63,487 nucleotides of DNA, filler included, from Reclinomonas americana ATCC 50394 (GCA_048213135.1; 17 parts of 17 records of this genome joined end to end with filler, not necessarily neighbours in it); one strand, 5' to 3'. Positions 7,992 to 46,263 are shown, counted from the first letter of the whole stretch. Numbers and translations: made by a program. Notes: generated from the sequence alone by a model not told the origin.

Positions 7992-8091
7992 NNNNNNNNN
8001 NNNNNNNNNNNNNNNNNNNNNNNNNNNNNNNNNNNTTAATTAATTAANNNNNNNNNNNNNNNNNNNNNNNNNNNNNNNNNNNNNNNNNNNN
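7992..8091. other. Artificial contig linker (N44-TTAATTAATTAA-N44); first of 16
   Basis: Identical 100-nt linkers at 7992, 10411, 14698, 16874, 20400, 21537, 27901, 43971, 47100, 48260, 50791, 51955, 53800, 57999, 59264 and 62009. TTAATTAATTAA gives stops in all six frames. Confidence 0.98.
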
Positions 8092-8295
8092 CTTCAGCCC
8101 GCGTTCCGACAACTCGACCAGATAAGCCCGGATATCGTCCGCCGTGGCCGCAGCCGGCCCGCCTCGGCTCGCAGCGAAGCCGAGATAGTCGTCGAGATCG
8201 CGCTCATAGGCCTCGAGCGTGTTCTTGGCTGCGCCGCGCTCGGCCGCCAGCATGTCGAGGAACCCGTTCAGCCAGGAGCGCGCCTGCTTGCTCAT
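8092..8295 (-). CDS. xerD: Tyrosine recombinase XerD, N-terminal part (truncated by contig end)
   Basis: FLDMLAAERGAAKNTLEAYERDL is the typical alphaproteobacterial XerD N-terminus. Confidence 0.9.
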
Positions 8296-8435
8296 TTCTG
8301 CAGCTTCGAGGGCGGTACGATCTCGACCATCTCGCGCGGCTCCGGCTTCACGAAGGTGACCAGCGCCAGCATGCCGCCATAGACCAGCCCGGCGATGACA
8401 GCCAGGAACGTCAGGAACTTGAACAGCGTCGGCAC
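8292..8435 (-). CDS. Small (47 aa) single-TM protein upstream of xerD
   Basis: GTG start, MPTLFKFLTFLAVIAGLVYGGMLALVTFVKPEPREMVEIVPPSKLQK. Stop overlaps the xerD ATG (ATGA). Too short for the ORF track. Confidence 0.8.
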   Translation of the reverse strand: MPTLFKFLTFLAVIAGLVYGGMLALVTFVKPEPREMVEIVPPSKLQK

Positions 8436-8465
8436 GGCCGGCGATTCCCCATGCACCCCAACCCG

Positions 8466-10298: not shown

Positions 10299-10510
10299 GC
10301 GCCTCACTGTCCTCGTCGCGGCGCTACGAGCCCGACCGGGCGGCCCCGGTCAAGCCGCAGCGCAAGGCACATGGCGGTACCGCGATCCTCATGCTAGAGC
10401 GGGCTCAAGGNNNNNNNNNNNNNNNNNNNNNNNNNNNNNNNNNNNNNNNNNNNNTTAATTAATTAANNNNNNNNNNNNNNNNNNNNNNNNNNNNNNNNNN
10501 NNNNNNNNNN

Positions 10511-11135
10511 GGTGCTGGCCTCGCCCTATACCCGCATGCCGCTCTGGCGCGACAAGCCCGAGAACATCGTCGGCGTCCTGCACGCCAAGGACCTGCTGCG
10601 CGCGCTCGATGCCGCCGGCGGCGATGCCTGCAAGCTCGATGTCGCGACCATCGCGCTCGAATCCTGGTTCGTGCCGGTGAACACGCCGCTGCCCGAGCAG
10701 CTCAAGGCCTTCCTCGCCCGCAAGACGCATTTCGCCCTCGTCGTCGACGAATATGGCGAGGTGATGGGGCTCGTCACGCTGGAGGACATCCTCGAGGAGA
10801 TCGTCGGCGACATCCGCGACGAACACGATGTCGCCGTGCCCGGCCTGCGCCAGCAGCCGGATGGGGCAGTTATCGTCGACGGCGGCGTGCCGATCCGCGA
10901 CCTCAACCGGGCGATGGACTGGCAATTGCCCGACGACGAGGCGACCACCATCGCCGGGCTCGTCATCCACGAGGCCCGTGCCATCCCCGATGCCGGCCAG
11001 GCCTTCACCTTCCACGGCTTCCGCTTCGAGGTGATGCGCAAGAGCCGCAACCGGCTGACCGCACTCCGGGTGGCGCCCGCCGGCAACGGCACGCTGGCCG
11101 AGCCGGACGCGGCCACTGCCTCGGTCAGGGGCTGA
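10511..11135 (+). CDS. HlyC/CorC family CBS-domain transporter-associated protein, C-terminal part
   Basis: YTRMPLW, ALVVDEYGEVMGLVTLEDILEEIVGDIRDEHD and ATTIAGLVIHE. Confidence 0.92.
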
Positions 11136-23469: not shown

Positions 23470-24737
23470 ATGGCGTTCTCATTTGAGAACGAGGTGTGTG
23501 TGAATGAGCGTGTGTAATGAGCGAACGATTTTGTCGTGTGACACTGCAACGCAGAATGCATCCGAGCCAGTGCAGTTTGGACACCCCGAACCACCCTCCT
23601 CTTCCTCATCCTCCACCGCACCTTTTGCACTCACCACACCATCGGCTGGTGCGTTGCTTCCGCATCACGCCACCGAGGAGCAGCGACAGTATTTGGAAGA
23701 GTGGAGCGAGTTGCATTCACAACATCTCTCTCTCTCATTCTGCGCAGTCGCTCACCATCGCCTGTGCACTCAGAGAGCAAGTGCGACTCAGTCGACAGCT
23801 GATCCTCGACGACGACATTGACTGGGATCCACCGGGTGCGTCCGAATGTGGCTCTGCATTGTGCACAAAGCAAGTTCCTCACTCCTTGTTGCCTTCCGCA
23901 GATCGCCGGCTCCGCTACATTGGCGGTGTCGACATTAGCTTCTCCAAGACCGAGGCCAACCATGCGTGCGCTGGACTGGTGGTGCTCGAGTACCCGTCCT
24001 TGAAGGTTGCGTCCGAGTTGGCGCAGCGGTGTCTTCCGTTGCCACGTGTCGTCCATGACTGTTGCATGCAGGTGGTCGAGGTGATGACGGAGATGGTGAC
24101 GTTGGACCTGCCGTACATCCCGGGCTTCTTGGCGTTCCGCGAGGTGCCGCACCTCGTGCGACTGGTGGAGCGACTGCGCGCGGAGAAGCCAGAGATTTTT
24201 CCGCAAGTGATCATGGTCGACGGGAACGGCATTCTGCATCCGCGTGGCCTCGGCCTGGCGTCGCACCTCGGTGTGCTGACGGGAGTGCCGGCGATTGGGT
24301 GTGCCAAGACATTTCTGTACGTGGATGGTCTCGACGAGCGTGACATCAAATCCAATCCGGAGCTGGAACGACCCGGTGCTTGGGTGCCACTGCGCGGAAA
24401 GTCGGGGCGCATCTGGGGCGCGGTGCGTGTTCCCTCCCTCTCTTCTCCTTTCCTCTCTTCTCGTTCATCAGTGATGAATCGCTTGCAGGCGCTGCGAGGT
24501 ACCGAGGCCGCCACAAATCACATTTACGTCAGCCCAGGTCACCGTTTGAGCATCGAGACGGCGGTGGAGGTGCTCGCTTTCGTCGTCAAGCCTGCTTTCA
24601 ACGCTTCCCACTCATTATTCCCCCTGCAGTTGACGCGACGCGTGTGCAAACACCGCGTACCGGAGCCTGTTCGACAGGCCGACCTGGAGACACGCAAAGC
24701 GCTGCGTGAAGAAACCGGATCATCACCCAGGCGGTGA
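23470..24737 (+). CDS. ENDOV: Endonuclease V, about seven exons
   Basis: YIGGVDISF, LPYIPGFLAFRE, MVDGNGILHPRGLGLASHLG, YVSPGHR, RVPEPVRQAD. Introns 23494-23554, 23710-23773, 23836-23901, 24006-24071, 24423-24488 and 24570-24629. Start tentative. Confidence 0.92.
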
Positions 24738-24778
24738 GCACGTTACATAAACATTAGTTGCCCTACATTCTTCTTGTG

Positions 24779-27700
24779 TCACCTCCTGGCCCCGAATCGT
24801 GTCAGCGGTGGCGGTGGTGTGGCTAGTTGCCGCAGCAACGTCGCTTGCGCCTCGGTGAGACCGGTGCAGCCCTCGATCATGAGCTCCGGGCATCGCAAGT
24901 CGCCAGTGCCCGTGTGCCACAGCAGCGTCGAGCAGTATGCACCACCACGATCCAGCGACGACCGCAATGGCGTTCCACCTGCACCAGCGGGTGCAGGCGA
25001 CGCGGAGGATCGTGGAGTGCTGCTGTCGGGGAACAGATTGAATTGCACTTGTCGCACCGAAAGCACACGCGGGTCGTCCACCGTGTCGTCGTCGCCGGCG
25101 GCGGGAGCACTGGCACCGGCACCGGCGGCCGACAGATCCTCGGCCGACGACGAAAGCCAGGACAGGTCGCGCGACGACCGGTCCGGCTGTGCACTCCACA
25201 GACGCAGCACTGCATCGGCGCCGCCACTCAGGATGCGCTTGGTGTCCGGCGACAGCGCAATCGAGTACACTGGCACCCGCTGATTGATGCGATGAATCAG
25301 CTCGCCCGTCGAGGCAATCCATAGATTGATCATGCCGTCGGTGCCACACGACGCCACGGCCTTGGAGTCCGGCGCCCAGCACACACACGTCACTGGCGAG
25401 GCGTGTGCACGCTCAATCGTGCGCAGACACTCGCCGCGGTCGGCGTTCCAGATGCGCACCGAGCTGTCGAAACCACCCGTCGCAATGCGGCGTGTGCTCG
25501 GCGAAAACGCCACACTCAAAATCGCCGACGAGTGTCCGTGCACGGCACGCACCAACGAGCCAGCCGCCACATTCCACAATCGCAGCACATTGTCACCACT
25601 CCCTGTGCGCACACAAAAATGAGTGAGCGTGACTCGTTGCCAATAATTCGCTGGCGCAGAGATTCGACTAACCCGCAGCGGCAAACTGCCCATCCGCACT
25701 CAGCGCCACGGCGCGGAACCGCTCCGGCCACTCGCCAAACCCACGCAACAACTCGCCCGTGTCCACGTCCCACACGCGCACGCTTCCGTCGAACGAGCAC
25801 GACACAATGAGCGCTCCGTCCGAGGAAAAGGCCACCGAGCGTACCCAGTGTGAATGGCCGCGCAGCACGCTGAGGCAGATGCCGCGCTCCGTGTCCCACA
25901 ATCGCACCGTCTTGTCCTCACTGCCCGACGCAATCACCACTCGGTCGGTGGTGATGGCCACGGCGCGGACGGCTGCCGTGTGGCCGCCGAGAAGCAGGAT
26001 GCACTGCGCCGTTGCCGCATTCCACACACGTACAGTACAGTCCTCCGAACCCGACACGGCGAGCTTGCCATCGGTCGAGAAGGCCACACAGCGAATCCAA
26101 CCCGAGTGCTGATCGCGTGCCTGCTCACCCTCAGGTCTCTCATCGACATCCCACGCACGGGCCGAGCGATCCACCGAGCCCGTCATCACCAGGAAGGCGC
26201 CGGAGATGTCGGCGACAGTTGGACTGCCACACGCAACACCACGCACGGCGGCCGTGTGGCCACGCAACACGCGAATGCACTGACCGCGACACTGGCTCAG
26301 CGGACGAATGTCGTATACTCGCGCGGTGTTGTCGCCACTGCCAGAGACCACGAAGCCGCCGTCGCGAGAGAAGCACGAGGAAAACACGGCGCCCGAGTGA
26401 CCGTCCAAGTCGAACAGCTTCTCCATGGTCACCGCATCGTACACCGCCGTTCGCCTGCAGTCAGCACGCAGGCAGGTGAGGAAACAATGGAAGACTATGC
26501 CATAAGCTTCATATACACACCTGGAATCGCCGGCGGCCAAGATCTTGGATCCATCGTTGGCGACGTGCACTGTGCGCACGGGGCCACCATGACCCACCAA
26601 CACGTGCACACACGCCGCGCTCGCCAAGTTCCACAGCCGCACCGACTCGTCGGCACTGCCAGTGACAAGAAGGGTGCCGTCGGGGGAGAAATCCACCGCC
26701 AGCACCTCATCCTGGTGACCGGCCAGCTCGCTCACTCGATGGCCCGTCTCCACATCAAACACGCGCGCCAGATTGTCGCCGCAGGCCGAGGCCACGAGAC
26801 GCGCGTTGGGACTCAGGGCGACACCGTGCACACACTCCGAGTGCGCCGCAATCGTCCGTACGCACTCACCGGCGACGGTTTTCCACACTCGAATCGTACG
26901 ATCGCGACTCCCCGACACGGCCACCTCACCGTCGGCACTCACGGCAACCGAGGTCACCACGAGTGTGTGGCCGGTCATGGTGGACGCGAGCGAGGCAGCA
27001 GCCGTGTTCCATCGTCGCAGTGAGCCGTCGTGTCCACCGGTCAGCAACCACGCCCCGTCGGCGGACGACGCCACACACGTGATCATGGTCGAATGCTGTC
27101 ATGCAAAAATAAAGGGGGGGAGAGACGAGATGAGCTCGCTGTGAAGCGGAACAAGGTGACGATAGAATGCACCTGCAAGAACGGCTGCTTGCCGAGTTGC
27201 ACGCCCTTCATTTGACACCGCCGGAACCGCACGTTGGCGAGCCAGGCGCCCGTCAGATCCACATTGCACAGATCCGCATCCTCAAAATTGGCCCCGTCCA
27301 ACATGGCCTGCACCGACGCACACGAGAATCAGTCAGCTGGCGGCAAAGCACACACGGGGGACACAGTGGCACGCAACGTTGGACAGGTTGGCGCCAGCGA
27401 TGCGCACACCCCGCATGTCGGACTTGACCAGCGAAACTCGCGCGGCATTGAGCACGGTAATGGCATTGGCGGCCGCCAGAGCCATGTCGGGTTGGTGACG
27501 CGAGGCGTGCACGATGCCGAGAAGGTGCGTCTCGGCCTGCTGTCTCCTTTGCACCATCTTGCCCAGGAAGCGAACAAAATCCGTCTGTGGTGCCACTGAG
27601 GGTCAGCGACAACGGTAAGAAGAGCAAAGTGATGCACACTACCTCGGCGGTAATAAGGCGAGCACATAGTGGGTGACTCCTCAGTGCGGCATCTCCCGCA

Positions 27701-27799
27701 ATGGACCAGTCGTCGAGAGCACCGAGCGCCTCCTCCGCGGCGAAGAACTATACAGATCGTACGCGTGAGAACAAGGACGAGAAGCACAGAATCTGATCT

Positions 27800-27872
<73 letters not shown>

Positions 27873-27900
27873 CCGTACCGTACGTACGTACGTACGTAAC
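24779..27900 (-). CDS. C-terminal half of an NLR-like protein: pentapeptide repeats plus about 14 WD40 repeats
   Basis: AAANAITVLNAARVSL...GVRIAGANLS/AMLDGANFEDADL, GH...W repeats, terminal IEGCTGLTEAQATLLRQL. Introns include 26455-26520, 27096-27172 and 27308-27377. Confidence 0.85.
27801..27869. repeat. (CA)n microsatellite at a contig end
   Basis: Read directly. Similar tracts at 53711-53770 and near 61730. Confidence 0.97.
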
Positions 27901-28000
27901 NNNNNNNNNNNNNNNNNNNNNNNNNNNNNNNNNNNNNNNNNNNNTTAATTAATTAANNNNNNNNNNNNNNNNNNNNNNNNNNNNNNNNNNNNNNNNNNNN

Positions 28001-30225
28001 CACTCACTCACTCACACTCACTCACTCACTCACACACACACACACCTCCCGTAGCGACTTGTCGACAAATCGATACCGATACCCATCACCTCCAGCTCGC
28101 AGTAAACCCTTTGCCCCAAATGCGCAGTGAGGCGCGACAGCATGGGAGGCGAGAAAAAATGATCACATGCGACGCAACAGCATGAACAAGAGTGGTCAGT
28201 GGGTCTCCCGACGAAACCGTCAGCTGGTCAACATCTCTCCTCAGAATAAAGTATTGGTGCATGCTGAGCATGCGCGAGGCCACTGCTCGGTACAGCTCAA
28301 GCAGCAGCGACGAGGTGACGGCACCATCGGTCGCCGTGTCCATTCTCCGCGACTGCAACCGCGCGCCAACAATGAGCAAGGCAGCGATGAAGAGGGAGAC
28401 GAGCACTTGTGTTACGCACCACCGACGTGATTCCGTGCGAGTACCACAACACAAACTCACGGATGACGTCGTTTCGCTCCACCACCTGCCCTGCATCCCG
28501 CGTCATGCATTCCAAACGCGGCAGAGCTCGCACCAGCAGCGAAAGATAAAGAGGCTGCGAGAAAAGCGAGATGAACACGATGTAGCGTGGGCGATTGGGG
28601 TCGAATCGCTCGCTGCTCACCACTTGTGCGAGTTCAGTCAGGCCTGGAATGGAGGCAATAGCATCGCGCAGCTGCCGCCAGTCGACTGAGCGGGAGGCGG
28701 AGCCACTTCGCTTGATGTATCTACACGTGAGAAGGGCATGAGCTTTCCAACTCGCCACAGGGGATATGAGACGGTGGCGCAACTCGCGCAAGAATTCGTC
28801 GACTTGCGTCTCCAAGAACGGCTGCAGGTAGCACTCGCTGACGACCACAGGTTCCGGCACACTGGCTCTCCGGCTCCTCTTGCTGTTTGGCGGAGGAACT
28901 GGAGCATGGAAAAAGGAAGCCAGTGGCCGACCAAGATGCCGTGCGTAGTCCAAGCGACAAGTGACGATCAGCTTGAACTTCCAGTCCTGCATCCGTGTTC
29001 ACCACCTGAGCGATCGAACCAACAGCCATCACGTAGGGAGACACGAACCGCAAAATTCGTTGCATGGAACACCGCCGACGGCAAGCTCTGCAGCTCGTCC
29101 AGCCCATCAATCACCAACACAATGTGGTACTTTTTCTGCAGCCGTGTAATCTGCAGACAAAATACTCGACCGATGAGCGACAGCCCGGTGTGAACTCCAA
29201 CCCGCAAGTCGCACACCTCACTCGAAGTGAATCCCTCGTGCTCCAGGAACTGCTCCATCCACAAGTGCTCCGGTTCCAGCAACACATCGGGGCGCACCAA
29301 CAGTGGCACAGCGTCGCCCTTGCCCCACGTTCTCCACAAATGAGTGACGACGTGCCTCGCAAGCACACTCTTCCCGGAGCCAGCATCGCCCAGCACCAGC
29401 AGCACCTGCAAATGTCGTCAGCGGGGAGACAAAGAGACAACACCACATCGCAACCGGGCACCTTGGAAACCATGTTGGTCGGGCTAAGAAACGCCTGCAC
29501 CAGGTCCATCTGCACACAACCAATGAGTTGTCTCGCAATCAGTGCGCCACTGTGTGATCCCCACGCAACCGCTGGCACCGGAGCCGATGCCACATGTGCC
29601 GAGGCCGTCGCCATGACACTGACATGACACACATCGACCACCGCCGGACCCGTATGCAACGCCTCTTGCAGGTGTCGCTCCTGCAAGTGCTGCAGCTTGA
29701 CATCCAGCGACACTCGCCCTCGCTGGACAGCGCAGCATGAGCACCAGCACTGAGAGCACACACATGCACAAAGATGGACGCAACGTGTGCCGCACTCAAC
29801 ACAGTGCCCTCGGAGGCCTCGGAGAGCTCTGTGACCGCGCGCGTGAGTGGACATGTCGGTTCACTCGCTGCACCACGCCTCTCTCTCGTGTGCGCGCATG
29901 TGTGCGCGTGCGCCTCTCTCCATAACACAACACACTGACAGAGACACGAGCACACACACGAAAGAACCAGACACAGAAAAGAAGCGCAACTGCAGACAAT
30001 GCAACTGTACACACACACACACACAGAGACAAGTAGCCTTCCATCTCTGTCCTTGATGCTCTCACACTGCTGCCGTTGCTCACCATACGCACTCGGATGG
30101 CCACCAATGGCATACGCAGAGCCTCCATTGGTTGTTCCACCTATGAGATGATGCCGCGACGCACCCACTCCACCTACACCACCGCCCACCACAGTCGCCT
30201 TCTCAGACGAACAGCGGCATCCCAT
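28001..30225 (-). CDS. N-terminal half of the same NLR-like protein: MGCRCS acylation motif plus NACHT NTPase
   Basis: VLLVLGDAGSGKS (Walker A), LVIDGLDEL (Walker B), KLIVTCRLDY, LQPFLETQVDEFL and PLYLSLL. Start MGCRCSSEK at 30225 is inferred. Confidence 0.8.
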
Positions 30226-30327
30226 TCCACACAAGCACACACCAACACGCACACACGGGCACACGCGCAGACACAGAGACAGTTGCGCAAATGAGTCACG
30301 ATCACAACAATCGTTTTCGCGCGCGCG

Positions 30328-33300
30328 ATGAGTGGTGGCCACAGTGGTGGCAATGGTCGCCACCTGTCTGCGATGCAGCAAGGCGTGCGCTCACTGCACG
30401 ACTTTGTGGTGTCGTCGACTCGCGATCGCCAACAAGGCGACGAGGTGCTGATTGCCTCCATAAACCTCAGCCACAATCGTCTGAGCAGCATCGATCCTCT
30501 GGTGCGCGTGTGGCCGCGACTGGCCGACTCGCTCACCTCGCTGGTGCTCTCTTCCAATCAGATCGATAGCATGAGTGGTCTGCAGGGGCTGACTGCACTG
30601 AGGGAGCTCAACTTGTCGGGCAATCGAGTTGCGATAACGAGGAGTGGTTGCATCGCTCGCTCGCTTGCTCATTCGTGTGTGTAGATTGTGCACATTGAGT
30701 GTTTGGAGACGCTGTCGTCGTTGCAGACGCTGGTGCTGTCGTTCAATCGTATTCAGAGTCTGGATGGTGTCGAGCAGGCGCCGTCGCTCGTGTCGCTCGA
30801 TCTCAAGCGCAACCTGATTGTCAGTGTCGATGAGCTGCAGCGACTGGAGGCGCTCACAGTTGCGCGCGGTCGTGAAAGGGAGAGAGAGATGGAAAGGCGA
30901 GGGGTGTTGCTCATGTGGTGTCGGTGCAGCGGTTGCGTCGACTGTGGTTGCTCGACAATCGTGTGTGTCGATCGCCCGAGTATTCGACCACGATTCTCGA
31001 GTTTGCCCCGCAGCTGTTGTACCTGGACGATGTGAAACTGGTGGCCGAGGCCACCTCTGGTGTGTTGTTTCCTTGCACTTGCAGTGGTCGCTTCGTCGCT
31101 CACGATGCGGTGCAGAGTCGGGTGCGTCTGGCGTGTTTCCGACCTTGCGCAGCCTCTCGGAACTCGTGCAGTCGCACGACCGGGCTGATCATGAAGACGG
31201 TGGTCGACCACCGGCCGAGCCTCCACCACCGCCACCCGCGACGGCGGCAGCACCACAGCCACCGCCACCTCCTCCGCCGTTGCACAGGTCTGAATTACGC
31301 GCGTGTTTATGTACTTCCGGTCGTCCTCTCATCGCGTTTGTATGGGGGTGCAGACCGGCGTCGGCAGACCTGGACGATGACGACGGCAATGTGGATACGT
31401 CACGCATCGACCAGGCGCTGCGCCATTACCAAGTGCGAGTGCCGCCTGGTGGTGGCGGGGCACGCAAACCAGTTGCGCGTGTGTGGCATCGATGTGTTCG
31501 ATGGCGAGTCGCTCACTGGCATTGTATCGTGACAGCGCTTGCGTCGGAGCACCTCGCCCGGCAAGCCAGCGAGTTGTGTCACCGTCGACAAATATTATTG
31601 TAATACACCGTCGCCACGTTCTCACGCGAGGATGAACACAGGACCAAGTGGCTGGGCAGCGGCACGGGCGCAGGCGATTTTGGCCGCGGGTGAACAAGAG
31701 GCGCTTGGACTGCGGTGCGTCGGTGTTCTCTCGCTTGTACACTGTCATCATTCGCCTGTGCTCACTTGCATTGTTGCAGGTTCGAGGAGGATGGTGAGCA
31801 GGCAGTATTTACAACCGCCTTGGAGAATGTGCACACTGACCTTGCACCACAGGCGGAAGCGCGCCGTCGCGAAAGCCCTCGTCGAGACCATCCAGTTCTG
31901 GTGGCAGTCGACCATCATCTGCAGCGGCATCGGCGGCCGGTCGGGGTGGCAGCAATGGTGGTGGCGAAGGACACCATGCGTGCAAGTCGTGCGGTTGCAC
32001 CTGCAACGGATCCAGTGACTGGCGAGCCGAAGCGGAGCGGTGAATTGTGTGCTGTGCGAACACGTCTCAACTATGGATTGCTCACGGACGAAAATTAGGT
32101 TACGCAAGGCACTGGCCGACGTGCGCAGCGAGATTCACGGAACGGCAGACGAGAAGGACAGCTTAGGCGTGCGACTGCAGCGGTGCGTTTTGAGGAGTGC
32201 TTGTCGAGTGGAGTAGTGTGTATGTATCGCTGACGTTCTACCCTCCTCCGTCTGCAGCACGCAAGGCGAGCTAATGGCCGCCACCGAGGACCTGTCACAA
32301 CGGGAACACGAGCTCGAGGAGGCCGGTAGGCGACGTCGAGAGGCAGAGCGCCGAGTGGCCGAGAGTGTGCAGACTATTGCGCGCCTGCGTGCCAAGCTGG
32401 ATGAGCGCAAGGAGGATATCGCGGCGCTGCATGAGGCTCGCGAGCGCCTGGAGGTGTGATATCCTGTAACTCTCTTTAGCGTGACGCCTCAACTGACTTG
32501 CTGTTGCAGCGCGTCAATCATAAATTGCAGAACGAGGTGGAGCGAGCACAGCAAGAGACGCGCAGTGCCGAGGCCGAGCTGCGGGACACGAGAGTTGCGT
32601 TGCTGCTGGTTGACATGTTGGTATGTGTCCGTCGTCTCACACGCCCGTCAGAGTGACATGGAGCGGCTGGAGGTGCAATTGGAAAAGTACCGAGAGGACT
32701 TGGCGCATGCGACAGCCAACGGGTCGGTCAAGGCCAGCGAATGGCAGGCGCGCTCTATGCAACTAGAGGCTGAGATGGAGGCGCACCGCAAGCTGGAAGT
32801 GCAACTGCGCGAGGAGGTGCGACTGCTGCGCGAATCCGCGCGCCATCAGGAAGAGGAAAATAGGCGTGTGCGGGAAGAACTTTCACAGTTGTGTATGACA
32901 AATCGAGGGAGGGAGAGGGAAGGAGAGGAGAACTCACGTATCGGTGGCAACACAGGCTGCACGGTGCCGAGATGCAGAATTATCTCGCGCGAGAGAACGA
33001 AGCCGTGTTTCGTGCCCGTCGTGCGGCCGAGGAGGAGCTCGCCGAGCGCGATCGCACCACGCAGGCGGCAGTGGCAGCGCTGCAGGACGATTTTGCTCAC
33101 CGACTGAAGAGTGTGTCACCACCAGCAGTGTTGCGATGATGAGTGTCGTTCTCTTACACGTGTCTCTCGTGCAGAACAACAACGCCAGATCAAGGATCTG
33201 CAGCAGGCACTGGAAGAATCGATCCGCAACGAAGCCGAACTGAAAACCGTTCGTAATGCGTCGTCGCCTTCGCTCGAGTCTCTCTGTTTCGGTAACACTG

Positions 33301-34862
33301 GGTGGCGGTGTGCGCAGGTGGCGCGTGACAGCATGACGAAAGAGTTGCGAACGGCGGCTGTGGCGAATGAACTGCGCGAGCTGGTGCGCGAGCAGAAAGA
33401 CAAGCTGGGCGAGCTGGTCGTCGCCAAGACCGAGCTCATGCGCAAGCACCAGGTTGGTCATCTAAGGGTGGGGGAAAAATGTCACCCAGCTGCTCGTCGT
33501 TCAATCGTGTGCCACGCAGGAGGAGATGGCCGTGCTCGAGGCTGAGTTGCGACGTGTCGCCGAGGAAGCACAGGTGCGTGCGCATGTCGCCTTGTCCGTG
33601 CTCCTCTTTGAGTCTCACCGCAACGCGCGAGCAGCACGGTCGCACGAACGAGGGTGAACTGCGTGCCGCCCGCGCCGAACTGCAAGCGCAGCGCACGCTG
33701 GCCACGCAGCTGGAGCGGCACATTGAGACATTGGACGAGAGGTGGAAGGAAAAGGTGAATGCCTCTTTTCGTTTTCTGTTTCCCCTTTTCTGCTGCTCAC
33801 GTTGTCGGTGCGCAGTTGCACGACATGCAATCGGCACGTCGTGAGGCCGAGGCGCGTGCCGACTCACTTCAGGACCGGCTGGCGGTTGCCGAGACCACGG
33901 TGGCCGACCGGGAGAGGCTCATAGTCCAGCGCACGCGGGAGTTGGAGGCGCTGGAGCGGTCGTTGGCTGACAAGGTTGGGAGGGGGGAAGGAAGGGGAAG
34001 GGGAAGGGGGAAGGGGGGAGAGAGGGGAAGGGGGGAAGGGAGGGGGGAAGAGGGTGCAGGAAGGAGCCACCTGTGCTCCTGTGCGATGCACGCACTGACA
34101 TCTGCTATCGAACAGGGCGCGGCGTTGGAGTCACTGCAGTCCGAGTTGCGCGGACGCCTGCAAGCGGTGCAGGATGAGCTGGATCAGGAGGTGGAGACGC
34201 GGACGAAACTGCGCGAGGAGCTGACACGCAAGGAGGAGCATGAACTGCAATTAGGTGCGCCCGTTTCTGCACGCCCTTTGTTGTTATCAGTGTGTGCACT
34301 CACACGAGTATTGCTGACGCCGACAGAGGAGGAACTGGAGACGGTGTCTCGCGAACGGCGCGACTTGCAGCGCAAGTACGATCGGCTGCATGAAGCCTTG
34401 GAAGACAAGGGGCGCACACTGAGCCTGCTGGAGCAGGAGGTAAAAGGCCTCCAGCGCGTGTACGAAGAGCGCGAGCGAGAGGCGCGCGAAAACTTCAAGA
34501 GCCAGCTGGCGGAGCAGGAGGCCGCCGTGATGCGTGCTCAGTTGCAACTGCGTGCGGCCGAGGACGAATGTCGTGCAGCGCGGACGCTAAGTGCGGATCT
34601 GGAGCGTCGCGGTGCCGAGCTCACCGAGTTGCGTGTGCAGGAGAAGGAAGAGGAAGGGTGTGTGTATGCACTGATATTTGTGTTGGGCAGAAACTTGCGG
34701 GAGGCTCGCGACGTTGTGGCGCAACAACGCGATGAAATTGTCGTGTTGCTGCGACACAATGACGAGCTGAAGGCGCAGATGGAGCAGCGCATGCGGAAGC
34801 TGCAGAGTGCGCTGAGTGAGCTGCAACTGCCGCTCGTGCCCGGTCCCAGTGGCAGCACGTGA
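30328..34862 (+). CDS. LRRCC1: Leucine-rich repeat and coiled-coil centriolar protein (LRRCC1/VFL1-like), about 20 exons
   Basis: N-terminal SDS22-type LRRs (INLSHNRL, LVLSSNQI, LNLSGNRI, LVLSFNRI), long coiled coil, and C-terminus MEQRMRKLQSALSELQ resembling the LRRCC1 C-terminus. Confidence 0.7.
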
Positions 34863-34915
34863 CGGGACGGACGGCCACAGTTTTTTCTTACGTATTGACT
34901 GAACGAGCAGAGACC

Positions 34916-35431
34916 ATGTGAGTTCGTTTCCTTCTGTCTATCTCTTCATGTGGTGCATCTCACGCGCTTGAGTTGCTGTTCATGTGCCATCACCACCGCC
35001 ACCACCACCACAGGGACGCCTTCGTTGCGTCTTCTTTTCGTCGCGTGTCCAACTCTTTGATTCTCACTCTTTTTCCTGCCTTCCCACAGATCCTTTGTTT
35101 CGTCTCCATGCTGTGCCACTAGTACTGAGAGCAATGCGCGCGTGTACACTCACCTCTTCTTCTCCTTCCCTCTCTTCTCGCGGCGAATGGGCAGTCATCG
35201 AGCCGGTATGTCTGCGCAGCACCACAATGTCTGATTTTCAGGTGCTGAGTTGTGTGCGTTTTTTCCTTTTAGGTTAGCGGCGGCATGACATCGGCGCCGG
35301 ACTGCCACCACGATCACCATGATCACCACCACGATCACCATCACCACCACCACCACCACCACCACCACGGCCATCACCACCACGGCCACCATGGCCACCA
35401 TGGCCATCACGGCCACCACGGCCACTGCTAA
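34916..35431 (+). CDS. Histidine-rich peptide (62 aa, 31 His) built from micro-exons
   Basis: Exons 34916-34917, 35014-35023, 35090-35096, 35195-35205 and 35273-35431 joined by GT-AG introns give MDAFILFIEPVSGGMTSAPDC-HHDHHD...GHHGHC*. An unspliced 48-aa ORF from the ATG at 35285 also exists. Confidence 0.6.
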
Positions 35432-36247: not shown

Positions 36248-39200
36248 ATGTCCACAAACTCGCATTCCACCACCTGGTCTCTCGCGAAAAGTTCGCGAAA
36301 GGGGCATCGCAAGCTGCGTGATGACACGGGAGCCGGCGCCAGTTCCAGCGGATCCACTGGCGGTTCTTCTGCAGCTGCTCTTCATGAGTTTCCCGGAGTG
36401 TGGGACACCACCGCCACGCACGCTGCGCCGGTCACCACAGACGTTGCTGGAGGCGATGCAGCTGGCGGGGCGACGGCCCATCTAGCGCTACCGCTTGGAG
36501 ATCGCTACGCCGGCGCCGATGTCGACCCCTTGACCGCAGGGGTAAGCAGTTCATTCATCACATTTAAGTGCAACCAGCTGAGTGGTCTGTTTGCAGTTTT
36601 CTCCGCAGCAGGTTATCGAGGCCATTCGGCAGAAGTACTTTCTAGCCTACCGCTACGCACGCGACTTTGTAACCGACCACCACAAGCTGGTGGAGCTACT
36701 CAGTCAGCAATTGTTCTCCGAAAAGGTTTCAGCACATGACCTGAGGCTGCGTGCTTCTTCAGTTGCTGACAACACACCCTCAATAGGAACACTTCTTCTT
36801 CGAGCTGATCCAGAACGCCGACGACAACAGCTATTCGGAGTCTGCGCCACGCCTGTTCGCGTTCGACCTTTTGCCCCCGTCTGACCTCTATCCCCACGGC
36901 GCCTTACTTACTGTCAACACGGAGGAAGGGTTCCAAGCGCTCCACGCGGTGGCGCTCTGTCGCGCCGGAGTCAGCTCGAAGCGCGGCGAGTCGTGGACCA
37001 CTGCCACAGGAGAAATGCGCCGTCGCTTCATCGGTGAAAAGGGCATCGGCTTCAAAGCCGTCTTTGCCATCACGGCATCGCCACACATCTCTTCGCGTGG
37101 CTATCACTTTTGCCTCGACCGCGAGCCTTCTGCCGAAATTCCCTTGGGGTACATCGTGCCGGAGTGGCTGACTGGCGACGATTTCCACCGGGTGACGCTG
37201 CAGGAGGGCGCACTTCGCGTTCTCTCGCGCGCGTTGGGAGATCGTTTGCAATTGGCGGAAAAGCTGATGAGGACGGAGCCCACTTGCATGCTGTTTCCGC
37301 TTTGCAGCGACGATGCTCAGCGGGTGTGCATGGACGTGCTTGAAGGCGTCAGCACCAACACCGAGGTTCTGCTGTTTCTTGCGCGGCTCGATATTCTCGT
37401 GCTGCGTGGTGCAGTGGTTGCTCGTTCAGTCAATCGAGTCGCAGTTGAGCTTCCGGCTCGGCCGAGCGGTGCGGGCCCAGAAGTCGATATTGTGACTCTG
37501 TCGTGTAATAACCGCGTGACCAGTCAGTGGCTCCGAGTGACTGTTCCGCTCCGGGCGCCTGCCGTCCAGGAGGCCAAGCGTGCAGGCGTCGAGCTTATTG
37601 ACATGGCCATTGCGCTGCCTCTGACGCTGGAGGGTCAGGCGTCGCTGTTGCAGGACGGCACGTTGTTTGCTTATCTGCCAACGAAGTGCTATCCACTCGC
37701 GCTACCGTTCATTGTTAACTCAGATTTCCTGTTGACGGCGTCACGTGAAGCAATACTTGACTTAGCCTGGAACCGGAAGCTGCTTGACACCACTTTGCCT
37801 GAGTGCTACGAGTTGGTCGTGCAGCACCTGTCAGCGTTGATTGAAGCCAATGAGGTACCGGCTTCGCTTGACGTTCTGCTGGGCATGGTGGTGATGGATC
37901 CGCCCCTCCTTCTGGACAAGCCTGGCTCAAACACGAGCGGTCTCCAAGTGCAGGAAGCGATGCGACACGCACTGCTGCGCGCTGCGCGCGTACCTGTCGC
38001 TGTGGAAGCTGGCACTGTTCCTCTTGGCAGCTGCGTCCTTGCACCAACCTGGTTCCTCGACCTTTTGAGGCAGGAAGACATGGCGTTCCTCCGGCAGGTG
38101 TGCCCGTCACTGCGAGATCCATCTCGTCATTTGGCGTCACAGGAGGTTTCACGTGCGATGGACCGTATTGAGCGCACCCGTTCACGTGGATATCAACCAG
38201 GTCACGTGACACAATATCTTCAGCTGCTTGAGTGGTCAGACGCTGACTGGAATGCACTGTTCAACTGCGACGGCTGGCTGCGACAACGGGCTGCGAATGC
38301 TGCGGATTTTGTGCAGCTCCTGCAAATGATCAAGGATCACTGGGCGGAAACTTTTTCCCGCTTTGTTGATGGTGCTGGGAAGCCAACCATCCGCGTCATT
38401 CCAGTGTCCACTCACGGCCAGCTTCACTTCGACGTTGGCATTGGCGCTGTGTTGAAGGACCAGCAGCAAGGAGGGGTCGGAGACTTTCAGTTCGTCTCCC
38501 AGATTTTGGGTGCCGAGCCGCGCGCAGTGCCCGTACTGACGGACACCGTCGCGCGGTCGTCGCTCTATCCCTGTTTCGTTCAACAGGAAATCAGCGACGC
38601 CATCTACCGTGTCGCCACTCTCCGTGACTGGCTCGTTACAAAGCGTTTTGTGACGGTGTTTCGTCTGGATGACTATTGTCGGTACTTGGCCTCTGACTTG
38701 TCACAGTCCCTCGCTGGACACGGCGAGGCAATCGCCGAGGTGCATTTATTGCTTCGCGCTCATTTGCGGTGGCATATCGCCCTGTCGTCTGCTGCAGCTT
38801 CATCACGCAGCGGTTCTACCGAACATGAATTCGTCTCTCAGGTTTGTCCTCCGCCATCAGCATCGTCTGTGCGCTTTGTTTCCTGACTGTGAGTGCTCTA
38901 ACAGTTGCGGAAGGTCCCCTTTTACTCAGACCAGTTGCGCTCTTCGTCATCACGTATGCAGCTTGACATCTCTGCTGCGGGTGGCGTGGTGAAGCCATAT
39001 CGTTTCTCGCGTCCGCTCTCGGAGTTTCTTGTGCTTGATTCGCACGCCGCGCGGCTGAGCTGTGACGCATCAGTTGGTGCAGCTCGGGCGGAGCAGCTGG
39101 ATCGCCTTGTGGACGGTCAGATTCGTCAGTATGTGTTGCGCGCTGATTACTTCTACCCGCCAGCTGGCAGCTTGGCGGCGGGCCGGTGGAACGATCGGAA

Positions 39201-42200
39201 GGCAGAGGAATTGTGTGCTTTCTTCTTCAACAACGTCGTCTGCGCATCAGGCTCGCCGGAGCCGCCGGTAGAACGGAATGGACAGCCGCACGTTCTCTGG
39301 GAGGTGTATCCGTGGGACCGATGGCTGTTGCTGGAACGCACTGAGTACTGCCGCCGCCTGCATGACATGCTGCTCTGGATCTCGCGCAGCCGGCTCGCTT
39401 CAGCTGCGCAGTCTGGACGTGGTTCACCAACACTTGGCCAACTGATGCGATTGTGGTGCGCCCGAACTGACTGCTGGTTCCCTGCGACATTAGGTGGCGA
39501 CGTCGGCAGCGGTACTTTACCGCCTGGTGACGTGAGTGTGTGGACGCCGTCGTACACATGTGTAACGCTGTTGCCAGAGTCCGAAGGTTCTGGCAGCAGG
39601 CAGATTAATTGGTCTTCCTGGTACAAGCGAGTTTCCTCCTTGCTGCCCAGAGCGGAGAGTTCTGTGGTGGATGGGCTCTCCGGTTCGATGCTGGACGCCC
39701 TCGGCATTGTGTCGCTGGGCAGCGTTGACGTTCATGACTTCACTGTGCTGCTGCTGCGACTGCTCGTGGAGGAAGTAGCTCCGTTCATGGACAGCAGGAA
39801 AGAACACATTGATGCTGTCGTCGGTCTAGACCGGAATCCAATTTCTGGCCTGCCACAAGCGACTGCCATCGCTGTATCGAAGACGATTGTGAAGTGCTTA
39901 GCAACGAACGCACGACGCATGTCTCATCAGCAGTTGCGGTCTGTGCGAGAAGAATTCGCAAATCGTCGCCTCGTATTTGTTCGGAGAAAGAACGGAGCTG
40001 CTATGATTATCTGCAGCCAACAGCGCACAGTACTGTTGCCATCCGGCTCAGCCGGCCGCGGGGAGCTTTGCTCAGTGGTGGACAGTTGGGGACCGGAATT
40101 TAAGGCACCGTTTGCGCTGGTTGATCGCAATACCATTGTGTCTGCGAACCCGGATGATTTAGTCGAACTTCTCGCGCTTCCGTCGACCGTGACGGAACAG
40201 CAAGTCTTTGATCTGATCGAGTCCTTCCGTCGCTACACCATGGCAGTTCCCGACAGAATGGATTCGCCCGACGTAGCTGCTGCCATCGTGAAGCTGTATG
40301 GTCTATTGTTGGATGCACATGCACGCGATTCTGCCTGTGGTGGAAATCCGGCGAGGAATTGGTTCTGGTGTGAGATGGGTTGGACCAACCCGGCAGGTGC
40401 TGGGCAGGATCTGCTCTGGCTTCCTCGAGACGCAGCCCCTCGTGCACGTGGGGGCGACGCGCCGTCAGCAGAGTCGTTGCTTATCCTGGAGGCACTGGCA
40501 TGCTTCAACATCAACCCCTCTGGTTTGTCAGCAGACATTGCGACGTCGTACTTGGACGTCTGCGTCAAACTTTGCGACTGTGAGCTTCTGCGTCTGACTG
40601 TTCGCAAGAAGCTGCCTACCTTGTCTTGGTGCAGTCGGGAACTGAACGCGCCCCAACTTGAAGCTGTGTTTCTCGCCGTGACTCAGGCCGACGTGCGTGA
40701 GCTTGGAATGGAATCGTCTGCTGTGTTGGCATTGTATGAGGGCCTGCGTCGGCTCAAATGGAAGCCATCACAAAGAGTACTGAGCTGCAAAGTCGTACTC
40801 ACTGCTGCTGGCGTGTTTGTGCATCCGAAAGAGGCGTATTTGCCGAGTCCAGGCATTGAGCTACCGTCCACAAGCACCACAGCTCGCCTCTATGCTGTCG
40901 GCTTCGATCGATTTGGCGGTGACCTTCGCAACTGGTTTGGCATCCGATATGTCGCCGAAGATGTGCTGCAGAGCCCACTCGTTGAAGTGTCTGTTGACGG
41001 CGCTCTGGAGACTGATATTCTTCACCCGATGGTCCGTGACTTGCTGCCCGACCTTCTGAAGAACATCTGGGAGCCATTGCCTCTCGGATTTGACTGGGGT
41101 GTATTCGCAACTGACCTCCGCAACGCCGCTGTGTGGGAAGTGTCTTGCATTCGCCAGGTGGTGCTCAACTCGAAAGGTGACAACTTGGGTGATGACAACA
41201 TTGACATACTGTGGCCTTGCCGTTCCAATCTGACCAGAGGTGCCGACTCCACGGTTCCGCGGCTCACCGACCACGAGCGACAGTGCATCTACGTTGTCCG
41301 CACTGATTTCCCTGACGGATATGTGAGGACAGTCGTGCGGCAACTTTACGCTGCTGTGTTTGACACCCGTCAGCAGTCTATGCCCACTCCGCGAGTGACC
41401 ACCGATGCGACCACTGAGGCTAATCGCCGTTCTCGTCAATTGTCCTTGTTGATGTTCTTAGAGAAGGCCACTGAGATCGTGCAAGAGTCAGAGGACATAG
41501 CCGAGCAGCTGCAATGGCTCGTGGAGCAGACCATCGACTTTGTACAGTTTGCGGCAACTAGATTTGATGACCCCGCTGCGCGCGACCTGGTCCAACGCGT
41601 CAGAGCTGGAGCCGCTGAGCGTCCTGGAGAAGGACTGCTGGGTCGTTCGACTGGTCCCCAACGAGAGAGTGAACCACGTGACACAACCAGTACTGCGTCA
41701 GCCGGTAGTGCGGCAATCAGCTTGGACCGGCCGCGTGTCGGAAGTGCTTCTGGGTCTCGCCCACATTACGAGGAATCAACGGCTGTTGCAGTGGGCGAAG
41801 TGCACGACTATGGCGCCACAATCTGTCGATCTCGCGTGACGGAAGTGATGCATGGGCCTTTGGTGGTACGGGACCTCGGCATACCATCAACTGTGCCGGC
41901 CGAAGTCGAGAGACAGGGTTTCCCTTCGAATTCAGGTGCGTTCGATGTCTCGTCGCTCAGCTTCGCAGTCTGCACCCTGACTGATTGTGCTGCTCGTTGG
42001 GCGTGCTCCGCCACAGCTCGTGCAAGCACCGGTAAGTAGCATCCTTCGTACTCAAAAGTGAAGCGTATCCATTGCTGACTTATAGACTGCAAGCCACTGC
42101 AGCTGATGCGCAACGCGGCGGTGCCTCCGGATCCGCCGAGCGGATTCAGCTAACCGTGGGTGCGAGAGAAAACCGTGATGCGGCGTTGCTGCGCGTTCCT

Positions 42201-42674
42201 GGTGGGCGCGAAGGCAGTGGCGAGGTGTTACGCCGGGAGCGTCCGAGTCGCCGCCAGGCGGACTTCGAATTCAAGAACAGTCTCGGCCTTGCAGGCGAGC
42301 AAATCGTATTCCAGGAGCTGCAAAAGCAATACCAGCCGCCGGACTATTGCGTGGTTTGGAATAACGAGCATGGAGAGAGCCAAGCTTCAGTGGACCTGGA
42401 AGTCCGCGACGGTCGCACTGGTCAGGTGCTCCAATTCGTGGAGGTGAAGACCACACACAACAGCAGCAGCGGCTTCTTCTTTTCCGGTAACGAGTGGGAC
42501 CTTGCTCGAAGAGAACGGCAGCGTTACTGTGTCTATCGCGTGGTTGGTCACCTGGAGGACGACAGTTGCTTTGTCCCGGAATCCATCACTACAATCCCAG
42601 ATCCATTTGGGTGGTACCTCAGTGACCGGCTCAACGTGAAGGCTGACAAGTACAGAGCAAGGGTGAATTTGTAG
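36248..42674 (+). CDS. Sacsin/NO VEIN-like GHKL ATPase with C-terminal DUF3883 (PD-(D/E)xK-type) domain, about 2000 aa
   Basis: LLSQQLFSEK/EHFFFELIQNADDNSY, IGEKGIGFKAVF, LFAYLPT, FIVNSDFLLTASRE. C-terminal GLAGEQIVF...VDLEV...FVEVKTT...NEW...YCVYRV. Large ORFs joined by GT-AG introns such as 38842-38904. Start tentative. Confidence 0.85.
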
Positions 42675-44070: not shown

Positions 44071-46263
44071 TGCACTTGCAGCGACGATATGACCACTCGG
44101 TCGCGTACCGAGCCATCCGCCAACACAATCATGTCGTGTATCCGCGACGTGACAGGAATCATGTTGGTTTCGTCGCCTCGTCGCACATCGAACGTGCGAA
44201 TGGTGCGGTCAAACGACGCAGTGACCTGTGTGCACATGCGCAGTGAATGAGGACGCGCAGTGCCAGCACATCGCAGTCCCTCCGCTTCGCTCACTCACAA
44301 TGCTGGCCGAGCCCATCAAAAAGCCGACGGAAACCACCTTTTCTCGATGTCCCATTAACGTGTGCAACAACTTGTTTCTCCTCGTCGACCACAGCAGCGT
44401 GCCACTGCGCAGATCACGGACAGAGAAATGAGGCCCACGCAGCAGATTATACGATCGTGCACGATAGCCCGCAACTTGCTGTGTGAGGTGGCCGCCACCA
44501 TGTCGCCCTCTGGTGACACACAACACCGCAAGAGGCCACTGGTGCTCTCCTCGAATCTCGTTGCCACACAACCTGTGGCACACAGTCAGCGATGGAGGAG
44601 GTGCCATTCGGATTCCGCTACGATGCATTTCCTCACGTTCCCTGCTGCTGGAGATGCACAACTTTCTGTCCTCGGAGGCTGCGAGAGAGTGAGCGACACG
44701 CGACTCAAATCAAAACCCCGATCCCCCACACGCACACCTGACACAATGCTCTCGCCCAGCGAGTCAAACGTCACGCACATGATACCATCCTCGTGCACCA
44801 ACTGCAGATGCGCAATGAGAAATGTCGCGAACCCTCAGCGTTGAGCGACAAAATAAAAAACACGCACCAAGTCACCCAGATGATATCTCGGTAACCTCGG
44901 CGACTCCTCGGCGGCGGTCCTCGGCTGCTGCAGTGGCGACAAATCCGGGCGCCACTCGGTGCCGCTGCTGCGACGCAACGACATGCGAGAGAGACTGAAG
45001 GTTGCCGGAGTGGACGAAAATGTTGCAACTGGCTGCAGGGAAGGCGAGCTCACGGCAGAGCTGCTCTTTGGCGGCAACGATAAGGACTGCCGTGCGGCAC
45101 TGCCGGCCACCTGCATCGGCACGCCACCTCCGTCGCCACCATCAGCATCCTCGTCCTCACTGAACACATCCCCTCCGTCGTTGCTCTCGCCATCCGCCTC
45201 GCCATCAAAGTCGTCGCTGAATGTCGAGAGGGTGTTCAGCGCTGTCGCGGTGCCAGCGGCGGCGGCCGACGCGGCGACCAGCGAGGCTGCCGATCTCGCA
45301 GTGGCGGTGGTGGTGGTGGTGGTGGTCGTCGTTGCAGTCACAGTGGTGGTGGTGGTGGAGGAGCTCGAGTCCGTGGCCGACGCTGTGGCACACAACTGTG
45401 AGCACTGAGGCCTGCGCGCAATGCAAGCACCACCGCACGAAACTGTGCGACTGCGCTCGCTTCCTTCGCGGCTGTGCGCTGTTGAACGACAGACAGTAAA
45501 TAATCTTCAGCCCCCCCACGATCAGTAGCCACTCGACAAACGCAACGCCTTTCCGTGTTTGAGCTCCTCCACTTGCTGGTGCAAGGCATTGTTCTCGCGC
45601 TGCAGTCGCTGAATGATCTGTTCCAGGTTCCGCACTGTTGACAGCGTAGAAGTGAACAGAACCTCGCGAGAGAGAGAGAGAGAGAGATCCACTCACCTTC
45701 TTCCCGAGCCGAAGCCACCTCCCGCATCATCGTCTGCCGTTCGTTGGCGTGCTGGTCGATGGTGGCATTCAATCGAAGCACATACACCTTGCCGAGATCA
45801 ATCTCAGCGTAGGCCTCTTGCAGTCTGCACTCGCATGACAAGATGTAACAGGAAGAACAGCCTCGGGCAAGGCGACGGATGCATACCGTTTCTCCAGGTT
45901 GATGACGATCTCCTCATGTTCCTGTGCGGGCGTGAGTGTGTGCTGCGCCTGACAACTTTAATGCACAGGCACACGCACCTTCACAAAATGCGATGACACG
46001 TATCTCTGGCGCTGTACTCGCGGAGGATGAGGATAAGAGACGGAAGAAGAGGAGATGTCTTCAGCACGCAACTCCATACGAGCGATCGGTGAAAAGGCCG
46101 TACAGAAGGCGACGCACGCGCTCGACTTGTGCGTTGCGCTGAGGTGCGCAAGAGAGAGTGAGGAAAGAAGGAAGAAGAGGGGTAGAATGAGAGAGAGGAA
46201 TACCTGCACAAGTCGCTGCAGCACATTTGCGCGCCATTGGGGTTGGCCGCCACTCGCCTCCAT
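44071..46263 (-). CDS. ATG16L: Autophagy protein ATG16L-like (N-terminal helix, coiled coil, WD40), 3' end missing
   Basis: N-terminal WRANVLQRLVQ/RNAQVE resembles the ATG5-binding helix. LLHTLMGHREKVVSVGFLMGSASIV/TASFDRTIRTFDV closely parallels the ATG16L1 WD40 segment LRHTLTGHSGKVLSAKFL...SGSHDRTLKLWD. Confidence 0.7.

Follow-up and report, generated by a model that had tools for sequence, protein, structure and literature searches.

By what means does a spliceosome recognize introns whose 5′ splice site (donor) begins with GTTGCG, usually preceded by A, alongside a majority of the type G/GTGYGT? The question is raised by a stretch of DNA from Reclinomonas americana ATCC 50394 (GCA_048213135.1), hereafter the window, in which 17 short contigs are joined into 63,487 bases; the eukaryotic portion seen here amounts to ~50 kb of one genome. 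A preliminary description had pointed to ten GTT donors, and all ten motifs are found where it placed them, on the same strands. All junctions discussed here are predicted from the sequence, protein homology or repeat periodicity standing in for RNA at five of them. The existence of a second donor class, real and frequent in the window, is well supported at this scale; how it is read is a separate matter, for which a displaced docking of U1 small nuclear RNA (snRNA) is considered below.

Junctions supported by protein sequence or reading frame

Six of the ten cited introns, and one intron of the majority class that serves as reference for the canonical profile, are the following.

23710..23773 (+): intron of 64 nucleotides (nt) in an endonuclease V gene; donor cga/GTTGCAT, branch GCTCAC, acceptor CAG
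24006..24071 (+): intron of 66 nt, endonuclease V; donor aag/GTTGCGT, with G at -1
27308..27377 (-): intron of 70 nt in a WD40 gene, within its pentapeptide repeats; donor aac/GTTGCGT
30628..30684 (+): intron of 57 nt in a leucine-rich repeat (LRR) gene; donor cga/GTTGCGA, branch GCTCAT, in-frame stop inside
30859..30929 (+): frame-shifting intron of 71 nt, LRR gene; donor aca/GTTGCGC, branch GCTCAT
32594..32651 (+): frame-shifting intron of 58 nt in a coiled-coil gene; donor aga/GTTGCGT, branch TCTCAC
23836..23901 (+): intron of 66 nt, endonuclease V, majority class (reference); donor cgg/GTGCGTC, branch CCTCAC

The endonuclease V gene was modelled by hand with six introns of 60-66 nt and aligned with 40 homologues, 25 rows of which were compared; the best relatives (from Balamuthia, dictyostelids, Capsaspora and metagenome proteins) are just 35-46% identical, no close annotated relative of the protist being present in the collection searched. 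At 23710 the junction EEWSE/EQVRLSRQLI aligns ungapped to the W-x-x-E-Q-x-x-L-x-x-x-L(I/V) of those homologues that reach this region, and the in-frame alternative donor 9 nt upstream would delete three residues, W included. At 24006 the junction YPSLK/VVEVMTEMVTLDL (YPSLK/VVEVMTE) leaves no gap against any of the 25 rows; the segment is in frame and stop-free, and its retention would add 22 residues that are present in no compared homologue. The reference junction at 23836 sits where the lengths of the homologues vary, directly before the conserved LRYIGGVDIS block.

In the two repeat-containing genes it is the periodicity that fixes the cut. At 27377(-) splicing preserves a period of five residues (VRIAG ANLSN/AMLDG ANFED ADLCN VDLTG), read-through meets a stop and the in-frame alternative donors would add 5 or 8 residues. 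At 30628 the asparagine of the LRR motif falls on residues 76, 98, 120 and 142, so that a spacing of exactly 22 residues is kept on both sides of the junction, which lies at residue 100; there is no alternative in-frame GT within 60 nt. The junction at 30859 is spanned by LT/RLRRLWLLDNRV, an LxxLxxLxLxxNxV motif in a repeat that is here 25 rather than 22 amino acids long; the sole in-frame alternatives, 33 and 39 nt upstream, would delete 11-13 residues. In a home-made Viterbi gene finder devoid of a donor profile (the donor-blind model), forbidding the donors at 30628 and 30859 costs 9.7 and 8.1 bits, respectively; such necessity costs are informative solely for these two sites and for 28783(-). 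Five predicted GTT junctions (23710, 24006, 27377(-), 30628 and 30859) are fixed by protein evidence of this kind.

At 32594 the frame itself forces an intron, since read-through stops at 32654. The downstream in-frame GTs would leave introns of 43, 31 or 25 nt and the one situated 57 nt upstream would give 115 nt; none of the 63 introns modelled in the window is shorter than 52 nt, their median is 66 nt, and the nine protein-supported ones measure 57-71 nt. The mixture model, which adds a two-class donor profile to the donor-blind one, preferred ttg/GTATGTG with a GAG acceptor over this donor. Beyond the five junctions fixed by protein evidence, four more of the GTT class are frame-forced without a reasonable alternative donor.

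The preliminary description had held that each of its ten donors yields an open, protein-like spliced frame. This stands on protein evidence for five and by force of the frame for 32594; it does not stand at 35024, where the flanks are non-coding and splicing leads straight into stops, and 28783(-), 32888 and 34628 can be read either way.

Donor profiles, register and enrichment

The 63 introns were taken from mixture-model genes scoring >90 and from the endonuclease V hand model, after exclusion of two introns antisense to the endonuclease V gene and of seven dubious ones (1235(-), 7471(-), 29990(-), 30067(-), 38098, 39894 and 42565) and after two replacements (32594-32651 for 32621-32672, and acceptor 28721 for 28706). 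They comprise 41 introns beginning with GT[AGC], 17 with GTTGYR (13 GTTGCG, 3 GTTGTG and 1 GTTGCA) and 5 with other GTT donors. The GTT class is frequent, at ~14-27% of modelled introns in the window: 9/63 (14%) if protein- or frame-supported sites alone are counted and 17/63 (27%) if all are, the latter share and the flank statistics being partly circular because the set was built with a class-two donor profile by a model that over-calls. Where removal of the intron is required and a sole in-frame GT is viable, the donor is GTTGCG in 4 cases out of 20.

The majority class conforms to the G/GTGYGT consensus put forward earlier, the 41 donors having A at -2 in 22 cases, G at -1 in 30, G at +3 in 36, C or T at +4 in 17 each, G at +5 in 31 and T at +6 in 23. 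In the GTT class the conserved G is found at +6 instead of +5, again as described, with G at +4 in 17/17, C (14) or T (3) at +5, G at +6 in 16/17 and T at +7 in 11/17. As to the exon side, the class does usually lack G at -1 (2/17) and has A there in 12/17, resembling the canonical A at -2 (22/41). Under the canonical profile, the flanking exon bases of the GTT class score +12.8 bits in the shifted register versus -32.4 in the unshifted one, and positions +7 to +9 score +9.3 versus -10.1 bits. The whole motif is therefore displaced, exon side included, a circumstance that favours a one-base slip of the U1 helix over a bulge after +2.

Different behaviour is seen in a third, small donor type having T at +3, G at +5 and G at -1.

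33453-33519 (+): donor cag/GTTGGT
33975-34115 (+): donor aag/GTTGGG
25603-25672 (-): donor cgg/GTTAGT

These GTT donors with G at +5 (GTTAGT, GTTGGT, GTTGGG) retain G at -1 and pair with textbook U1 in the normal register. With regard to their 3′ part, the introns of the eukaryotic contigs are short GT-AG introns with a median of 66 nt and a CTSAY branch 10-25 nt before YAG; 16 of the 17 GTTGYR introns have a branch word of the YTNAY type within 40 nt of YAG, the intron at 24006 having CATGAC, and the use of CTCAT versus CTCAC does not differ significantly between the GTT and the canonical class (Fisher p=0.35).

The class can also be looked for independently of gene models, by counting how often a word is followed by a strict 3′ signal, defined as CT[CG]A[CT], 5-26 bases and YAG, ending 50-95 nt downstream of the site. 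The baseline for all eukaryotic positions on both strands is 10.3%.

GTTGCG: 15/59 with the 3′ signal (p=7.5e-4)
AGTTGCG: 10/22 (p=2.7e-5)
GGTGCG: 18/74 (p=4.2e-4)
GTGCGT: 16/79 (p=0.006)
CGCAAC, the reverse complement of GTTGCG: 7/59 (p=0.41), baseline level
GTTGCG in the bacterial contigs of the window: 0/13

GTTGCG ranks second among the 192 GTNNNN hexamers, the first, GTGTGT, being confounded by microsatellites. Against a fairer baseline, the sense strand within ten gene spans (14.1% with the 3′ signal), the signal follows 12/30 GTTGCG, 9/15 AGTTGCG and 63/245 GTG[CT]G sites; in the same spans GTT words without the G-Y-G pattern are at baseline (14/115 and 29/214). The excess amounts to ~8 sites for GTTGCG versus ~28 for GTGYG, a ratio near 1:3.5. 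Motif sites with the 3′ signal have A at -1 in 10/15 cases versus 12/44 for those devoid of it (p=0.012), and G at -1 in 1/15. The peak of G at +6 predicted earlier is seen weakly at the scale of the window without gene models, GTT sites with the 3′ signal being enriched in G at +6 (odds ratio 1.46, p=0.054) just as GTG sites with the signal are at +5 (odds ratio 1.34, p=0.01); at this scale no enrichment of G was found at the other position (+5 for GTT and +6 for GTG sites).

Recognition of the displaced donor

The best explanation, to which we assign a somewhat better than even chance, is that two donor forms exist and that the second is read by U1 docked one base downstream, a mechanism that we infer from the profiles. 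A/GTTGCG(T) corresponds to (A)G/GTGYGT with each conserved base moved one position downstream relative to the cut and the canonical +1 G replaced by U. The 5′ end of U1 would sit one base downstream of its usual docking place, in what is called the '+1 shifted register', the +1 G of the site pairing at the place of the normal -1 G, its -1 A at that of the normal -2 A and its +6 G where the +5 G normally does. The later-acting U5/U6 and Prp8 machinery would still set the cut at GU. It is established that U5/U6, and not U1, set the cut site and that human U1 can pair in shifted and in bulged registers (PMC4856993, PMC11162779 and PMC9311317). Since the conserved G would lie at a distance of six bases from the cut instead of five, a +1 register would be required of the U6 ACAGA box as well, which would either tolerate one extra base or stay unpaired there.

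Roca and Krainer reportedly described, in 2009, atypical human donors that U1 reads in a +1 shifted register. The donors of the window share with these the GUU start, intron bases and exon preference displaced one base downstream, the lack of G at -1 and the cut at GU. However, the human sites are a handful and have a UAAGU core, whereas the class described here has a UGYGU core, concerns ~1 intron in 5, would pair weakly with textbook U1 and is predicted from sequence. Overall, according to passages of Tan et al. 2016, 4,270 of 201,541 human sites (2.1%) were retained as users of any non-canonical register, the bulge +2/+3 and bulge +3 registers accounting for 68 and 51 of 201,541 (~0.03% each) among the sites originally predicted (PMC4856993); taken together, the non-canonical registers are exceptions that serve ~1.5-2% of human sites. 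As portrayed there, these two bulge registers resemble the GTT class in that GU is followed by a further U, which moves the pairing downstream of it, but they imply normal pairing at -1, where the class has A in 12/17. A further likeness is offered by the non-canonical U6 register of the STAT3 tandem donor, as depicted in part of PMC11162779: there too the G read by U6 is not five bases from the cut, although it is one base closer (four) and at a single site, whereas in the window it is one base further (six) in a whole class. Among protists, the passages of PMC3879977 consulted report for Micromonas, which is GC-rich, a majority donor AG/GTGCGT and a CTGAC-type branch; those passages describe no GTT class. 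A literature search returned nothing relevant on GTTGCG intron donors or on non-canonical U1 registers in protists. A known but rare mode of donor recognition would thus appear here as a major class, its existence well supported at the scale of the window and its mechanism inferred.

Several observations weigh against this reading. Four of the ten donors originally cited are undecided or unsupported, and the evidence is limited to ~50 kb of one genome. The p-value of 7.5e-4 for GTTGCG fails Bonferroni correction (~0.14) if it is treated as the outcome of an unplanned scan of 192 hexamers; the enrichment survives if treated as a hypothesis stated beforehand, in the preliminary description. Of the 56 eukaryotic introns called by the donor-blind model, just 5 begin with GTTGCG, several others of this type being read through. 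Its coding statistics are too weak in this GC-rich DNA; it misplaces donors and reads through stop-free introns whose length is a multiple of three (3n). The mixture model, whose class-two donor profile underlies the set of 63 introns, over-calls to the point of predicting GTTGCG and GTTGCA "introns" in bacterial contigs; useful for acceptors but self-reinforcing, it lost the endonuclease V gene to an antisense extension. The pairing energies point in the same direction. With the textbook 5′ end of U1 (AUAC-psi-psi-ACCUG, as given in part of PMC9311317), from which that of this protist may differ, nearest-neighbour folding yields a mean of -2.1 kcal/mol for the GTT class versus -6.2 for the canonical one, and the G at +6 is placed on C4 in only 4 of the 17 minimum-energy pairings; the helix in shifted register consists of three two-base-pair pieces, and in this model a plain shift on textbook U1 would be a very weak interaction. 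Furthermore, no snRNA gene was found within the window by Rfam at gathering threshold and at E<=1, the matches being two tRNAs and three chance microRNA-like ones. Possible ways out of the weak pairing are a divergent U1 end, a variant U1, or proteins and U6 carrying much of the recognition.

The second of these leads to the alternative that survives best, albeit as an unlikely one: a dedicated variant of U1, and perhaps of U6, complementary to A/GUUGCGU (AGUUGCGU) might read the class while a standard copy reads G/GUGYGU. The poor pairing of the textbook U1 end speaks in its favour, as do the sharp definition of the class (G at +4 in 17/17, G at +6 in 16/17) and the expressed variant U1 genes known in human, according to parts of PMC3561869 and PMC10870369. 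On the other hand, a single position sets the two classes apart, a difference to which one U1 with two adjacent C residues can adapt by slipping, and the Rfam search of the window found no snRNA gene.

More improbable is a bulged helix, in which U1 would pair normally at -1, +1 and +2, one U of +2/+3 would bulge out and pairing would resume at +4. The preliminary description had considered a shifted or a bulged register, and it is the shift that is favoured by a motif moved by one base as a whole. A bulge would produce the same displacement on the intron side, its +2/+3 form has been validated in human, as related in part of PMC4856993, and the donor at 24006, having G at -1, keeps C9:-1 and C8:+1 in its predicted pairing. 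Nevertheless, a bulge predicts G at -1, which is seen in 2/17 donors versus A in 12/17 and, without gene models, in 1/15 versus 10/15; the exon side, in addition, scores those -32.4 bits in the unshifted register.

An equally small chance is given to the idea that U1 plays a minor role, with donors defined by U6 (its ACAGA box on GYGU, one base being looped out) together with intron definition, and with the A at -1 stemming from U5 or from coding constraints. The weak pairing predicted for U1, the short introns and strong branch signals, and the match of the canonical YGU at +4 to +6 with the bases read by U6 in the relevant part of PMC11162779 would all fit; but an exon-side preference that moves by exactly one base together with the intron side is left unexplained, and the literature consulted describes no +1 register of U6, its one non-canonical case, at a single human site, being -1 (PMC11162779).

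That the class is an artefact, GTTGCG being merely a common word and the introns using other donors or being absent, is very improbable: GAGTTGCG is indeed exonic as GAG-TTG-CGN (Glu-Leu-Arg) codons at 33344, 33546 and 34145, which makes it plain that the GTTGCG word alone is insufficient to make a donor, and 28783, 34628 and 35024 are not demonstrable while the mixture model over-calls, but five junctions are pinned down by alignment with homologues or by the period of a repeat, and the enrichment is strand-specific, with none in the reverse complement or in bacterial contigs.

Three other explanations were examined and rejected. A base-call error changing G to T at +1 would make the exon one base longer and presumably break frames confirmed by homologues. 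A family of introners finds no backing in an all-against-all blastn of the 63 introns, which gave 8 non-self matches, none between two GTT-class introns; the sole long intron-intron match is a tandem duplicate (6824/7146). U12-type introns have the donor /RTATCCTT and the branch TCCTTRAC; the GTTGCG donors and CTSAY branches are nothing like these signals.

Returning to U1 docked one base downstream, a bolder formulation, to which we attach a tentative probability somewhat short of even, is that ~1 intron in 5 relies on a motif wholly displaced by one base, with U1 and U6 routinely operating in the +1 register or with a second, matched set of U1/U6 variants, which would amount to a second donor code of the major type within one spliceosome. 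Were this true, the position of the cut and that of snRNA pairing could be routinely uncoupled, offering a natural system for studying how U5, U6 and Prp8 fix the cleavage site, and gene prediction that relies on one donor profile would get a fifth of the introns wrong in genomes of this kind.

Further donors and gene content of the window

The four remaining cited sites and five additional GTT-class candidates are the following.

28721..28783 (-): candidate intron of 63 nt downstream of a NACHT domain; donor cga/GTTGCGC; in frame and stop-free, read-through possible
32888..32955 (+): intron of 68 nt; donor aca/GTTGTGT, or gtt/GTGTATG 3 nt further
34628..34690 (+): candidate intron of 63 nt; donor cga/GTTGCGT; in frame and stop-free
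35024..35089 (+): candidate intron of 66 nt, located 3′ of the coiled-coil gene's stop codon; donor ttc/GTTGCGT, CTCAC and a pyrimidine-rich 3′ end with CAG
29723..29784 (-): additional candidate of 62 nt picked by the donor-blind model; donor cac/GTTGCGT, branch GCTCAT
31472..31535 (+): additional candidate of 64 nt picked by the mixture model; donor cca/GTTGCGC, branch GCTCAC
44405..44475 (-): additional frame-shifting intron of 71 nt in a coiled-coil plus WD40 gene; donor caa/GTTGCGG, branch CCTCAT, acceptor from the mixture model
45479..45546 (-): additional frame-shifting intron of 68 nt in the coiled-coil plus WD40 gene; donor ggc/GTTGCGT
46012..46072 (-): additional frame-shifting intron of 61 nt in the coiled-coil plus WD40 gene; donor gga/GTTGCGT, branch CCTCAT

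Forbidding the donor at 28783(-) costs 4.4 bits in the donor-blind model, and the open reading frame (ORF) around it has no homologues at E<=0.001. At 32888 a frame shift requires an intron, the tandem donors differing by one codon and being indistinguishable. The first half of the candidate at 34628 would encode ELRVQEKEEEG, which is coiled-coil-like, and the canonical alternative agg/GTGTGTG would give an intron of 33 nt. The candidate at 35024 may be an intron of an untranslated region. As to the additional ones, forbidding the donor of 29723..29784(-) costs merely 0.8 bits and the coding evidence in its flanks is weak; 31472 has an in-frame alternative, cgt/GTGTGGC, 9 nt downstream; 44405..44475(-) has no viable in-frame alternative with the same acceptor; 45479..45546(-) has a single one (ttt/GTCGAGT, 9 nt downstream); and for 46012..46072(-) the sole alternatives lie 45 and 54 nt upstream, costing 9-12 bits.

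The contigs are separated by linkers, N44-TTAATTAATTAA-N44 (7992-8091, 10411-10510, 14698-14797 and 13 further sites), that carry stops in all six frames, so that no feature can be assumed to extend across them. A Pfam scan of stop-free frames of at least 100 codons covered 290 of 302 frames. Five contigs (8092-20399) have a GC content of ~0.65 and intronless genes of bacterial type, and are probably bacterial contaminants of the assembly; the other contigs hold eukaryotic genes, including an aspartyl protease, endonuclease V, NACHT, WD40 and LRR proteins and a giant Sacsin/NO VEIN-like ORF.

8092-20399: bacterial-type genes for a chorismate-binding/aminotransferase IV fusion, phage integrase SAM-like and Arm DNA-binding domains, CorC/CBS, a Na/Ca exchanger, DUF1330, TRAP DctP, Asp/Glu racemase, DUF3008 and GNAT
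18338-18411 (-): tRNA (Rfam), within the bacterial-type contigs
24779-30225 (-): on one strand across the gap 27901-28000, exons with a NACHT P-loop, a run of pentapeptide repeats and >14 WD40 repeats
30328-34862 (+): N-terminal LRR block of SDS22 type followed by ~800 residues of coiled coil
36248-42674 (+): giant, intron-poor gene that opens with a weak Sacsin-domain match and closes with a NO VEIN C-terminal domain
44073-46263 (-): intron-dense gene with 12 modelled introns, four of them with GTT-class donors; N-terminal coiled coil, Thr/Ser-rich low-complexity exon, C-terminal WD40 repeats
54230-55030, 57500-58300 and 60340-61090 (+): three paralogous units, each upstream of or between WD40 genes

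Within the endonuclease V gene (23508-24734(+)), four successive introns of 66, 66, 66 and 60 nt are all 3n and stop-free, so that one reading frame runs through exons and introns alike, uninterrupted for 409 codons; an ORF-based annotation would keep these introns. The features at 24779-30225(-) may constitute a single large NACHT-pentapeptide-WD40 gene. The LRR block and the coiled coil at 30328-34862 are fused by the gene finder via two GTT-class introns (31472, 31573) and may be one gene or two; if single, the gene is presumably of the LRR plus coiled-coil centrosomal type. The domain layout of 44073-46263(-), judged by eye, looks ATG16-like. The three paralogous units at 54-61 kb are ~78% identical over their full length with no separation of exons from introns, and the micro-exons predicted there are unreliable. 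Repetitive tracts occupy 27790-27900, 28001-28030 and 33975-34060: microsatellites of the types (CA)n, (CACT)n and (ACGT)n are found at contig ends, and the intron 33975-34115, 141 nt long, contains a purine run resembling (GGGGAA)n.

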